From: Malacoraja senta
Lineage: Eukaryota
Direction of reading: 5' to 3'
DNA: 64,000 nt
NCBI GenBank assembly: GCA_038087875.1
Contig: CM075989.1
Location: 17,610,001-17,674,000, forward strand
The notes below the pieces were generated by a model. That model ran no database searches. It had not been told where the DNA came from and saw nothing but the letters and a program-made list of their open reading frames with translations. Every line of letters starts with the position of its first letter. Position 1 is the first letter of the stretch. This document shows, piece by piece, positions 11,801 to 59,553 of this stretch. The position numbers and the translations under genes are program-made.

Positions 11801-14800
11801 ATTGTACTATTAACTATGTCATTTCCTGGCGTGCTGCACCAGACTCATACAATTGAATTAGTTAAGGATAGAAAGGAATTTTAGGAATGAAAAAAAATCC
11901 AAGTGAGGAAGAAATTGAACCTCATCCTAGTTTTTCCATGCTTGATGCATTCCTCAGTCATTTATAACACACTAACTGATGATAGACACAAAAAGCTGGA
12001 GTAAGCGGATCAGACAGCATCTCTGGAGAAAAGGAATAGGTGACGTTTCAGTCTGAACACTTCTTCAGACTTGGATGGAGAGCGGTAGGAAAAAAGTAAT
12101 CACAATCAGAATAACCTTCGTAGACAAAGTTTATTAGAGAAATAGAAACAAAATTCTAACAGCATTTAAAAGATTTGCTCACAGATTGAGCGATGCAATC
12201 CTTTACAGCAATGGCCATTCACCTTTGGAACTCAAGTTAGATTAATGGATTAAAATTCTCTGGCAACTCCAGTCCCAAGTGCTGTGTGTCTCAACATTTT
12301 AAACTCTTGCTAATCTCATTTGCACAATGCAAAACTATTCAGAAATAAAGTGATGCTTTTGTCCAGAATCCACAAAAGTGTGACAGGGAATAGACCTGGT
12401 ATTGCCACTGGCCTCAAGTTGGAGAGTTGGGGGGGTGGGGGGTGGCGCAGATGGGTAGACTTGAAAATGGAAAGAGATTTTTTGCTCTCTGCTATTTGTA
12501 GCAAAATCATAAACTTGGTTTTATACAGCCGTTTGTAATGCACTATAAATATTGAACAAAAGAAAACCTTCTCCAGTAATGGAACAGTCGGTCAACTGCA
12601 TTATATATGACCTGTGTGTTTGATACTGATCTGCAAGCAAACGCAGGAAACTGTTCATTTACATTCCCCAAGACTGAGATCATGCATCTTAATGCGCATT
12701 TACATTGATTTCAAATAAAAATCAGGAAAATATAAGCTCACATTTATTACATTTCTCTTTCAGTATTTTAAGGTTAGTCACAAAATTGTAAAAGCAGTCA
12801 CTGCCTATGATCTTCCATATTTGAACAAGGTCTGTGCAATAATCTTTCAAATTAATTACCTCATTTACACACAAACACTATAAAACTCGTCCGAGGAATT
12901 GGTAACCGGTGCATATTTAACACAACCTGAATGTGTTACCGTAGATTGGTTATCCACAATGAATTACGCACAGATAAATTAGGCTCAATCAAGTTCTTTA
13001 CCTTCGCTTATTGTTCCAGAAACTGGCACAGATGCAGAAGAGAATGCAAAGCAGCCCAAGACAGACACCTACAATGATGCCTGTTACAGAATGTACATCA
13101 AGGAGATCATGCAGTCCTGAAAACAAAAGGAAACAGCAGTAGCCTGTCACATCTGTAGCATGCATTCACAATTATAGAAATCAAGGTGTATATCATTAGT
13201 CCAAGAATGTAATTAGCACGCAGCCAACCCAAGTATTCACTAGCGTTTTAAAGCATTAAATTCAATGAAAGGAGCTCTGTTAGGTTTTTAATTCTTCCTC
13301 ATTGTATCACAGTATAATGCTTGGTGGAAACACAAACACTTCATCACTTTGGATATCAGATTAATGTCCTCCACTTTTAATTTGCTGAATGTTCCATCAT
13401 TCACTCTCTATCATCAGGTCGGCTTAACACATATATAATAAAAGGAGCCCTGAGCAATCATTCAGAGCATGCCACCAGGTGAAAGGACATGTGAAATGAT
13501 TTACATTCATCAGCCTAGTTCTCATTTAACTGTAATACTGCCTGGCATTTCTTGTACGAATTTTTCATTTAAAATAATATTTTTAAGTGATATAAAGGCA
13601 TGGGATTTCCTCATGAGGATAGGGCCAAATGAAGCTTTCCCAATCCAACATTTTCCTGGGTAAGTAGTCTTTATGGAGCAATTGGCATCCATGCTAATGT
13701 AACATTAATAGTGTGGGATGTTCTGGGAATCAAATCTAAATGGTTGCTTAAAGGGCTGGAAGAATAGTTTAAAAAAACATCCAACCAAGAGTCATATAAC
13801 ACAGAAGGGCCAGCTCGTCCATGCAGCCCAAGACACCCACCTGAGGTTGCTTCAGCCACGTGGGCAGATAATGGATGGTAAAACAGGTGAAATGGGCTTT
13901 GGAACCTTTCCTTTATTAATTAATAAAGGATTAATGTGTTAATTTTCTCGAATGATGGTGAAGAGATTTTGACTGAAATCTGGTGAATGTTCACGGAATG
14001 CGTCTGAACAATGCTGAAGACGAACACTACCAAAAAACAGAAACATCAAAACCTTTATTTACATTGAGGGATTAATCGTACTGAAGGGCAATAAGTGAGT
14101 GGTGTTCTCACCTCTTTATAGTCGTGGGAATTTAACACCTAGTGAATCAAACACTGCACTGTATAATGCTTCATGGAGAAATTGTACAATACCTCATCTG
14201 TATGCATTTGATTGACTTTTTCCTTAACTTACACACAAAACTCTTGATGGTACACAAGTGTCCCCAGGTTATTTTGGGGATGGGAGCATGAGGGGGTTGC
14301 GATTTTCCGTAACGCAAAGCTGTACCCTCTGCACGTGTCACGAAACAAGTTGAAAAATAAATAAATGGTATTTATTTTCTTTTGGTAGACAAAATGCTGG
14401 AGAACCTCAGCGGGTGCAGCAGCAACTATGGAGCGAAGGAAATAGGCAACGTTTCGGGCCGAAACCCTTCTTCAGACTGATGGCGGCTGGGGGGGGGGGG
14501 GGCGGGGAGAAGAAAGGAAAAAGGAAGAGGAGGAGCCCGAGGGCTGAGCGAAAGCTGCGAAGGGGAGGAGACAGCAAGGGCTACCGGAATTGGGAGAATT
14601 CAATGCTTATACCACTAGGGTGCAGACTGCCCAAGCGGAATATGAGATGCTGTTTCTCCAATTTCCGGTGGTGCTCACTCTGGCCATGGAGGAGGCCCAG
14701 GACAGAGAGGTTGGATTCGGAATGGGAGGGGGAGTTGAAGTGCTGAGCCACCGGGAGGTCAGGTTGGTTAATGCGGAGGTGTTCGGCAAAACGATCACCA

Positions 14801-17800
14801 AGCCTACGCTTGGTCTCACCGATGTAGATCAGCTGACATCTGGAGCAGCGGATGCAATAGATGAGGTTGGAGGAGATGCAGGTGAACCTCTGTCACACCT
14901 GGAACGACTGCTTGGGTCCTTGAATGGAGTCTGCCAGAGCAGATTTTTGGGTAATACTTTGTGAATTCTGTAAGGGTGAATTTTGAATACCTGAAAACCC
15001 TAACATGGAGGTCACTAGTATATTAGTGTGGTTTCTCAGTGTATAAAGTGTTTCACACTTATAATTTAATGCTTCATTCCTGGCTTGTTAATAACATAAT
15101 GTGTTAGCTGTGTTATAACATGTATTCAGTAATACCAAATAAATATAAGCTATCAAAATTTACCTAATACAATATTAACCAATATCTGCAGTTTCTAGTT
15201 ATCAAAATTTACCTAATATTCGTTTTGCCAGAGTTTGCACATCTTTTGTCATGGAATATGGTCCCCTTCCTACAACCGTCTTTGCGCCCATCTTGAAGAA
15301 GTACCGAGTGTCACTTTTCAGTCCCCGCACATCGGTGCTGAAAATGTGCCCTAAATATAACAAAATTGATAATTGAAGAGACCTGCTGCCAACATCCTAA
15401 ACCCTATCAACATATTAGTAGTTTATTTTTTAGATTAATTGAGAGATACAGCGCGGAAGCAGGCCCTTTGGCCCACCGGGTCCGCGGCGACAATGTTTAC
15501 ACCTACCAAGCCAATTTACCTACATGCCTGTACGTCTTTGGAGTGTGGGAAGAATCCGAAGATCTCGGAGAAAACCCACGCAAGTCACGGGGAGAACGTA
15601 CAAACTCCATAGACGGCACCCGTAGTCGGGATCGAACCCGGATCTCCGGCGCTGCAAGTGTTGCAAGGCAGCAACTCTACCACTGCGCCACCGGGCCACC
15701 AAATCTTTATTTCTGATTTACAGCCAATCATTGGGCAACACATGATTTAGAAACACATGAAATGATCTTATTTTGAACTTGTACAAATAATATTGCATCC
15801 AATGTTACCAGTTCCCATCAGCTACTTTTTCTGCCTGAATTTTTCCGTCTCAAAATACAATTATTTAAAATTATTGATGCAAATATATTTTACAGTCCAC
15901 AGCTGCAATATTGTTTATCTACACTACTTAACATGACACCGTGGCAGCACAAGAGGCGTAGCAGTGGAGTTGCTACCTAGCAGCACCAGGGACTCGGGTT
16001 CAATCCTGGTCATGGGTGCTGTCTGTCGGAGTTCGTACCTTCTCCGGGTGCTCCCGTTTCATCCCACATTCTGAAGATGTGCAGGTTTGTAGGGTAATTG
16101 GCTTGTGTAAATTGTCCCTGGTGTGTAGGATAATAATAGTGTGCAGGTAATCGTTGTTCGGTGTGGACTTGGTGGGCCTATTCCACACTGTATCTCTGAA
16201 ACTAAAATTAGATGCAGAACTGACTTGAGAAAAGGTGGTCTTGATTGGCTACTGAATCATTTCTGAGTATGGCATCCAATTAATAATTAAAGTTTAGTAT
16301 TGAAGATTCATAGCTTTGCCTACTCCAAAACTAACCTTGTGGAATATGAATGCATTATAAGGTTGACAAAGTTCATTGTTCTTCCTCATATGAGGCCAAG
16401 GCAAACAGCAGATATTGTTTTATTTTAGCGATGTCACAGGAACAAGTCATTTCGTTTCATAACAGATTATGGGGATGACAATCTTGTTTTTGTGATTGTG
16501 TCATACATTTTTTATATCTCAGAGATTACTTCAATTCATCAAGAGACTCTAAACATGATTTCTTCCTTTTACAACTCCGAAGCACTCGTACCACATTTCT
16601 GTTTCTCTATCCATTCAGCTTTGGCTCAACCACCGTCATTTTTGACAATGATCTTTCTTGTATACTTCCAATCTCATCCATTTATATATTTTTGAACATT
16701 CTATTTTGCTGCTGTAATTAAATTTGAATTATCTATTGTATTGCAATTTCCCTATCTTGCATTTTCTTTCGTAACAGTGGGAATTGCAATGCAAAGAGGA
16801 TGGATTAGAGGCACAGATATGGGGACTTGGGATGGCAGGGTTAATTCTGTTATCCACATTTGAAGTAATTTACTGTGTAAGGACAACATAATTCTCCAAT
16901 TGCACAATAACAACCAACTGAAATGGAGAGTATTCGTGATTTTGTCTCAATTACATTGCAGATGAGAGATTTCAACGACAAGGCTAAACTAGAGGATCTG
17001 TGCTTGCTCTATTTCACCAAACCAAGCTTGAGGAGATTTGATTCAGGTGAAAAAGATCATGGGATTAAGGTAAATATGGAGAAGCCATTCCAATATGCAA
17101 GACCCAGGCAATGAAAGTTCTAATTGATGGACAAAAAAAAAAAGAAAGGGAAATGTGAAAAAAAACTCCTTTTCCTGCAGTAAGTAAAGTTATTATCCTG
17201 AACTCACTATAGTGATGGTGGAAACAAAGTCATTCATGGATTTCAATAGGAATTGGTACTTACTGGAACATTATTTGTAGGAAAGTATGGAGCAAGTGTG
17301 AGTGTGGGCAACTACGCCATAGGATGTCAGCATAGACTTCATAGGCGAATGGCTTTACTCTGTTCTAAAGTGTGTGAAGCTAATTTACAAATGTTACATC
17401 AAACGTCTCTCACATTTGAACATTGGTAAGTTCAAAAAAAGGAGGGGGGGGGGGGAGAAATAGCGTAAAAAAAGAATAAGGGCAACTATAATTTTCACTA
17501 AATTGATCAGTCTTATAGATTTCATTCCAGAGGACATGTCACTGAGCAGATATTTTATACACAATCTCTAGTATTAAAGCAAGCAGCTAAAATAAATTCA
17601 ACAAGACATTGTGATAATGTTTTTGGTCTTCAATCCATTCCCTGACATATTGCAATGTAGGCTGGCATCAACATCCGTGCACTTTTTAATAAAGCACTAG
17701 CATGAATGATGACATCTATTACCTACTTAAAAAAAGAATAAGTCTGTCTTTCACACTGGGACCAACAAGGTCAGGCACATATATTTGTTTAAAATCAAGG

Positions 17801-59235: not shown

Positions 59236-59356
59236 AAGGAGCATATATTCAGTGCTAACAAATTTGCTGATATTGAAAATATGGAAAAAGTGCGAACTCT
59301 GTCTTGCAATTGCTGCTAGCCCAATAATGTATGATAACAACATGTGTACAAATGTT

Positions 59357-59553
59357 TAGGGAGGAACTGCAGATACCGGTTTAAACCGAAGACAGACACA
59401 AAAAGCTGGAGTACCTCTGCGGATTAGGCAACATCTATGGGGAAAAGAAATAGGTGACATTTCGGGTCGAGACCCTTCTTCAGTCACCTAATCCTTTTCT
59501 CCAGAGATGCTGCCTGACCCGCTGAGTTACTCTAGCTTTTTGTGTCTGTCTTC
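59357..59553. mobile_element. PLE-derived fold-back mini-element
   Basis: Inverted arms; TSD 12/14 at 59343-59356 and 59554-59567. Confidence 0.75.

Follow-up and report, generated by a model that had tools for sequence, protein, structure and literature searches.

Minimal hammerhead ribozyme motifs recur within the gene IGDCC4 of the skate Malacoraja senta, in a stretch of 64,000 nucleotides (assembly GCA_038087875.1, contig CM075989.1, positions 17,610,001 to 17,674,000 of the forward strand) that is referred to below as the window. Do these ribozymes cut the transcript in which they are embedded? The original prediction, made from the letters of the window alone, held that neighboring copies in the sense orientation could dimerize and cut IGDCC4 introns as they are transcribed. 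We favor a different reading, to which we assign a probability of roughly 0.88: the motifs represent the minimal hammerhead carried in the end repeat, or pseudo-long terminal repeat (pLTR), of a young, likely Neptune-type Penelope element, and the intronic copies are 5′-clipped insertions that likely do not cut host RNA. The copies face either way and decay, and therefore likely have no effect on the host gene; co-transcriptional cutting of introns is not supported, given the lack of strand bias, the neutral decay of the cores, and the broken state of the proposed dimers.

The host gene is IGDCC4 on the minus strand, as had been proposed, with one exon 97% identical to the thorny skate protein. 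Its coding exons run from window position 5129 to ~34 kb beyond the window end, with 17 matched inside the window, and all eight motif sites are thus intronic (nearest exon on the 3′ side of each site 0.6–7.5 kb away). The motif letters match at all eight, including the plus-strand copy at 33389-33416, whose core is intact and antisense to IGDCC4, and the 27-mer with up to three mismatches gives 10 matches in the window compared with 0 in 100 shuffles. The coordinates originally listed are correct, but the opposite-strand partners were overlooked: the 19 pLTR-tail matches in the window, one or two of them weak or misregistered, comprise 12 sense and 7 antisense, and each of the sites at 56424, 59456, and 33389 forms one arm of an inverted, head-to-head insertion.

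The motif and its source element

At 14448 and 40579, the motif lies ~100 nt past the stop of a GIY-YIG frame. The GIY-YIG cut-off is passed by the window piece at 14384..14930, and a related 792-codon frame (L041) gives RVT_1 (E = 1.7e-4) and GIY-YIG (E = 2.5e-3) matches that are both below the curated Pfam cut-offs. A set of 12 chosen loci with long frames reveals the architecture of the source. The hammerhead flanks a frame of 1,210–1,261 codons on both sides in eight of these loci, is present on the 3′ side only in two, and is not detected by pattern in two. Four of the eight two-hammerhead loci have their hammerheads 3,918 nt apart, and in the five that were self-compared the flanking repeats are 98.8–99.7% identical. 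In intact elements, a 1,224-codon frame is flanked at both ends by a hammerhead, and partial tandems occur. The GIY-YIG frame just upstream of the motif, together with these loci whose open reading frame (ORF) sits between two pLTRs, bears out the proposed Penelope origin. Exact copies of the 27-mer number 20,906 genome-wide (10,406 forward and 10,500 reverse). In our sample of the IGDCC4 locus and 20 other gene bodies (1,172,548 bases), 421 tail matches correspond to one per 2.8 kb, or ~700,000 stubs if scaled to the genome. The young family with open frames of 1,210–1,261 codons in partial tandems (L091-L099 and L101) is likely still active.

A CX4CxxC linker is present between the reverse transcriptase (RT) and the endonuclease; in the accessible text of PMC8557442, a CX2-5CxxC linker is a trait of Neptune and Nematis. 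Further likenesses to the endonuclease-bearing (EN+) Neptune elements described there are the single ORF combining RT with a C-terminal GIY-YIG domain, the partial tandems, the inverted copy at the 5′ end, and an optional tail of 30–40 bp. Judged by these features, the young family is likely of Neptune type.

The motif satisfies the CUGANGA...GAAA...UH core and is a minimal type I hammerhead, as originally proposed. Its ACGU remnant of helix III is found in 65 of 90 descriptor matches, and helix I is 2 bp (U-A or U·G, then G-C) even in young elements; both traits had been read correctly from the window. So had the extra nucleotide after A9 as a known natural trait (PMC4209133, available portion). 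This nucleotide, lying between 9 and 10.1, and the G10.1-C11.1 pair are kept in the family and at 14448, 26367, 33389, 56424, 56825, and 59456, with C11.1 being U at 40579 and 25885, and ACGU is lost at 56825, 59456, and 25885. An Rfam scan returned no hammerhead family among 13 matches at E up to 10. A type III reading, with the cut between UC and AGU upstream of the core, was ruled out by inspection because helix III cannot pair.

In these features the motif matches the minimal hammerheads of metazoan Penelope-like elements (PLEs). As far as the available portion of PMC4209133 goes, the two share the core, the single nucleotide between 9 and 10.1, G10.1-C11.1, the palindromic 15.2-16.2 segment, and presence in both pLTRs, with mostly solo truncated copies and some opposite-strand pairs. 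Most published PLE motifs have a helix I of 4–5 bp, whereas the skate motif has 2 bp, as does that of D. virilis; the 4-bp helix II of the skate motif is counted as a difference, and the 20,906 exact copies compare with ~4,000 in coelacanth and ~9,000 in Xenopus, counted by a different method. The same portion names no cartilaginous fish and reports that single minimal motifs do not cleave in vitro and that dimers and trimers cleave little. The skate motif is a further example of a known minimal hammerhead kind, described in 2014. Its copies and their surroundings in the window are as follows.

5129..51938, minus: IGDCC4 coding exons in the window (the 17 matched)
11974..12071, minus: decayed pLTR stub with broken stem II
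14384..14930, minus: 5′-truncated Penelope copy with GIY-YIG end (14584-14892; PF01541, 22.8 bits, cut-off 22.6), pyrimidine tract, hammerhead, and tail
14448..14475, minus: hammerhead with core, G10.1-C11.1, ACGU, and 2-bp helix I; the sole complete sense copy in the window, with no intact same-strand partner within 1 kb
25781..25960, minus: older pLTR piece; core 25885-25912 with G10.1·U11.1 and AGGU instead of ACGU
26294..26394, minus: pLTR stub beginning at C3; core 26367-26394 intact, lacking the 5′ strand of helix I
33256..33456, both strands: single insertion of two inverted arms, head to head, flanked by a 13-bp target duplication (as seen in the printed flanks); minus core 33360-33387 with G12 mutated, plus core 33389-33416 intact and antisense to the gene
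40477..41145, minus: 5′-truncated Penelope copy with linker and GIY-YIG region, core 40579-40606 with C11.1 changed to U, and tail
43557..43912, both strands: Penelope coding fragment (minus) whose 5′ end carries an inverted pLTR (43815-43912, plus)
56350..56592, both strands: single insertion of two inverted arms, head to head, flanked by a 10-bp target duplication; the arms are 103 nt long, 94% complementary, and separated by a 7-nt gap; minus-arm core 56424-56451 without helix I
56721..56855, minus: separate insertion, a pLTR stub from another subfamily, flanked by an 8-bp target duplication; its core (56825-56852) has AUGU for ACGU
56986-57100, antisense: pLTR stub near 56721..56855
59351..59559, both strands: inverted insertion; minus-arm core 59456-59483 (AUGU)

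Differences in stem II had been read as changes that keep pairing. The G·U closing pair at 40579 is present in the letters, but it reflects decay: a CpG in the conserved G10.1-C11.1 pair has changed from C to T. At 14448, GGGU-UUCG-GCCC in place of GGGU-CUCG-ACCC does keep pairing (U-A/U·G), but as a one-sided subfamily difference that is not compensatory. In the GAAAUGUC variant at 56825 and 59456, a change at a CpG disrupts the ACGU palindrome.

Folding, decay, and orientation of the intronic copies

Folds of the minus-strand transcript were predicted at equilibrium, a treatment that ignores proteins and co-transcriptional order. For the proposed cis dimer of 56424 and 56825, both cores are predicted to pair with antisense arms (P(stem II) = 0), 56424 within a 103-bp inverted hairpin, and forcing a dimer-ready fold has a predicted cost of 108.6 kcal/mol. 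Helix III of this dimer would consist of A-U, U·G, G-C, and U-A, and one helix I would be only 1 bp. The second proposed dimer, 26367 with 25885, carries a penalty of 24.7 kcal/mol and has a G:G clash in helix III; one helix I opens with A:A, and neither helix I pairing reaches 2 bp. Neither dimer is borne out. The paired copies are separate insertions, and within the sampled pieces only one same-strand pair of intact cores lies within 1 kb (1 in 1.17 Mb). In favor of neighboring sense copies forming cis double hammerheads that cut IGDCC4 introns during transcription are the intact cores at 14448, 26367, and 56424, the dimer cleavage established for the minimal hammerhead class (PMC4209133, in part; reviews), and the lean of copies within IGDCC4 to the sense strand (9 versus 2 cores by a loose descriptor; 16 versus 10 tails). 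With the hairpin, the G:G clash, and the scarcity of pairs against it, we consider such cutting extremely improbable.

The core at 59456 keeps stem II in the predicted fold, with the inverted arm covering C3 and the cut site. In this insertion (59351-59559), the direct arm starts at C3 and the inverted arm very near the cut site, leading to a long helix; the predicted pairing of the plus arm across C3 and the cut site is two bases off the helix I register. An in-register junction of this type elsewhere would make a hammerhead with a long helix I.

Could a few complete solo copies such as 14448 instead cleave at low levels, acting in trans with element RNA wherever the element protein is made and with no selected host role? 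Such a copy has all features of the young family, the family includes intact, near-identical copies, and the Anolis ribozyme cuts when its protein is present (PMC11167929, in the text available). A helix III formed in trans would, however, be only the 4-nt ACGU, the predicted fold pairs the pyrimidine tract upstream of 14448 with its core (P(stem II) = 0.01), and sense copies are not depleted; we give this possibility little credence. An RNA start at -3 that would free the core from the pyrimidine tract was also considered and is not supported, P(stem II) being 0 in the young element in all contexts tried (mean P(stem II) in the start-at--3 test over 18 copies, 0.14 vs 0.06).

The decay of the cores was followed in 41 copies anchored by flanks on both sides. 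Divergence is 13/410 (3.2%) at non-CpG core positions and 78/2,009 (3.9%) in the non-diagnostic tail (p = 0.57), the latter value being biased low because the copies were chosen by tail score. The catalytic G12, which is in a CpG, is changed in six of the 41 copies (14.6%), and the CG of the palindrome in 18/82. G12 is lost at the CpG rate, and the cores decay like their flanks. The original prediction had named in advance, as a result that would count against it, cores no more conserved than their flanks across genomic copies; this is what we observe, and across those copies there is likewise no retention of the core beyond the neutral rate of the kind that marks a domesticated hammerhead.

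A different picture is suggested for the lineages that gave rise to these copies. Four subfamily-diagnostic changes fall within the motif (loop, stem II U-A/U·G, H17 C/U, and 1.1 A/G), all at tolerated places, with the 11 invariant core positions spared, although the numbers are small. Because the diagnostic changes are confined to tolerated places, these sequences suggest that the core is under constraint in active lineages and not in inserted copies. The same avoidance of invariant positions argues against the view of a hammerhead that has become vestigial in the active element itself and persists only because it belongs to a promoter or a site bound by protein. That view draws on the 2-bp helix I, on a fold that is not predicted even in the young element, on Naiad elements, which thrive without a hammerhead (PMC8557442, as accessible), and on the absence of a distinct compensated stem II family: the 103 matches with two changes mix paired and mispaired stems and, as candidate compensated families, look like double mutants and segmental duplicates. 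We regard a vestigial hammerhead as rather unlikely; it is compatible with our view of the intronic copies.

The emphasis originally placed on sense orientation is not supported. The 16 sense and 10 antisense tails in IGDCC4 do not differ significantly from parity (p = 0.33), and in the 20 other genes there are 185 sense and 210 antisense tails (p = 0.23). Strict intact cores number 4 sense and 2 antisense within IGDCC4 and 24 sense and 17 antisense outside it (p = 0.35). Outside IGDCC4, the counts are 43 sense and 36 antisense for loose-descriptor cores, 17 and 14 for intact cores with a 2-bp helix I, and 13 and 12 if there is in addition no nearby antisense core. The 20 other gene bodies show no excess of sense copies, nor the loss that would be expected were such copies to cut the pre-mRNA to harmful effect.

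Some points weigh against our reading. The ribozyme of the young element itself is also predicted to be misfolded, and fold predictions alone therefore cannot prove inactivity, though the predicted misfolding fits a need for protein help. The loose-descriptor cores within IGDCC4 are the one lean toward the original prediction. With only 41 intact cores outside IGDCC4, a mild effect of selection may be present, and the strand of the sampled genes is itself inferred from Pfam exon matches. Finally, retrozymes are depleted in Xenopus introns according to the accessible part of bioRxiv 10.64898/2026.07.22.740005; these are tandem arrays, unlike the skate stubs.

Insertion ends and the proposed role of the ribozyme

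From the 421 copies found with a tail-only profile, 263 were kept that score at least 40 bits, reach the profile start, and have a full upstream flank. An inverted arm lies upstream in 121 of these, another 41 have long stretches of upstream element sequence in common, and the other 101 are short. Target duplications of at least 8 bp are found at 21/84 short copies versus 3/248 shuffled, and those of at least 9 bp at 29/60 versus 4/174 shuffled, the 60 loci having been hand-picked from the first 100 listed as not inverted, long, or duplicated. The 3′ ends of the 29 duplication-bearing copies fall at +87-95 in 18 and at +124-129 in seven, a two-site tail signature known from the Anolis element (PMC11167929, in part).

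At the other end, 87 of the 263 copies begin at -5..0 relative to C3 and 10 in -40..-11. Target duplications show that the ends in this pile-up are true insertion ends. They do not mark the cleavage site, as only 8/263 lie at +25..+30. In inserted copies, the cut site is still connected to the tail, and few start at the cut; at the level of the inserted sequences, this shows that the RNA template was uncut at the ribozyme it carried. An origin of the stubs as host exons joined by splicing to the AG that precedes the core was ruled out because the upstream flanks share no sequence and carry target duplications.

By analogy with the Anolis element, the element protein would nick DNA, copying would start at one of two tail sites ~35 nt apart, read through the uncut ribozyme, and most often end or invert at the ribozyme 5′ edge. 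Inserted copies would then decay as passengers, and any role of the ribozyme would likely be confined to tandem transcripts of the element itself, where it would act as a weak dimer aided by the element protein. In the available text of PMC11167929, the Anolis ribozyme cut only with the element protein and was dispensable for insertion in vitro; RNA-seq gave no read ends at it, and uncut RNA was the main template. The Anolis Poseidon element PAc thus resembles the skate family in its two reverse-transcription start sites that define the tail and in its uncut RNA template, whereas the PAc ORF begins inside stem II and the first skate ATG lies ~160 nt after C3, past the tail.

What places the 5′ ends so sharply? 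One tentative answer, possible but on balance doubtful, is that element RNA starts 3–5 nt before the core at TCAGT and that the 90–135-nt stubs are run-off copies primed in the 5′ pLTR of uncut RNA. With regard to a possible extra G derived from a cap, a G precedes AGT in 38 of the 100 copies listed (hand count, inverted arms included), and the extra bases end in G at 6 of the 12 duplication-defined junctions that have extra bases. TCAGT at the pile-up resembles an initiator. An internal promoter with an initiator is reported for D. virilis Penelope (PMC2377424), and rotifer pLTRs carry an initiator-like TCACT (PMC3846280), both as given in the accessible text. Rival explanations of the -5..0 pile-up are a strong stop for the enzyme and microhomology joining, and microhomology is common at the junctions of pLTR stubs. 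If the proposed start is real, it would account for both the shortness of helix I (2 bp) and the great abundance of stubs, and the ribozyme would act as a switch capable of removing a capped leader of 31 nt.

Related systems, neighboring elements, and meaning

Short pLTR-related units with a type I hammerhead are also found as non-LTR retrozymes (bioRxiv 10.64898/2026.07.22.740005, in part). Retrozymes are tandem arrays, whereas the window copies are solo or head-to-head with target duplications, and no head-to-tail array of short units is seen among them. One inverted insertion (L211-L213, G000:C4, 79.90 Mb) has both arms joining a donor-like site at the ORF start directly to an acceptor-like site before the core. 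This ORF-less, splice-like junction is the only locus of its kind among 16 matches; if the resemblance is real, splice-like loss of the whole ORF would offer a path by which Penelope could give rise to units the size of retrozymes.

Domesticated intronic hammerheads of amniotes (RECK and others) are likewise type I hammerheads in introns; according to the text available in PMC6155905, they are conserved across species, whereas the skate copies are ~21,000 identical mobile copies that decay and lack helix III. We found no paper on skate Penelope hammerheads or on the 5′-end pile-up in the literature as accessible; Lunse et al. and the supplements, which lie outside that scope, may cover cartilaginous fish.

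Other mobile elements share the window. Two large RT-type fragments of long interspersed nuclear elements (LINEs) lie on the minus strand at 41295-43152 and 57553-59355, are 77–82% alike, and are presumably CR1-like by their resemblance. Adjoining the 33389 copy is an element at 33466-35100 that we take to be Tc1/mariner-like; its ends are inverted (33466-33547 and 35019-35100), and its transposase frames are broken. Broken frames seen in translations of the minus strand at 52893-55056 resemble a DIRS-type retroelement.

As found, the skate is one more host for the motif described in 2014, which is of small importance in itself. The measured negative is that skate introns tolerate minimal hammerheads in the sense orientation with no selection apparent, a tolerance that fits in vitro reports of near inactivity without the element protein. 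With its young, intact 1,224-codon copies and its sharp pile-up of 5′ ends, the family offers a system in which to ask what Penelope hammerheads do.

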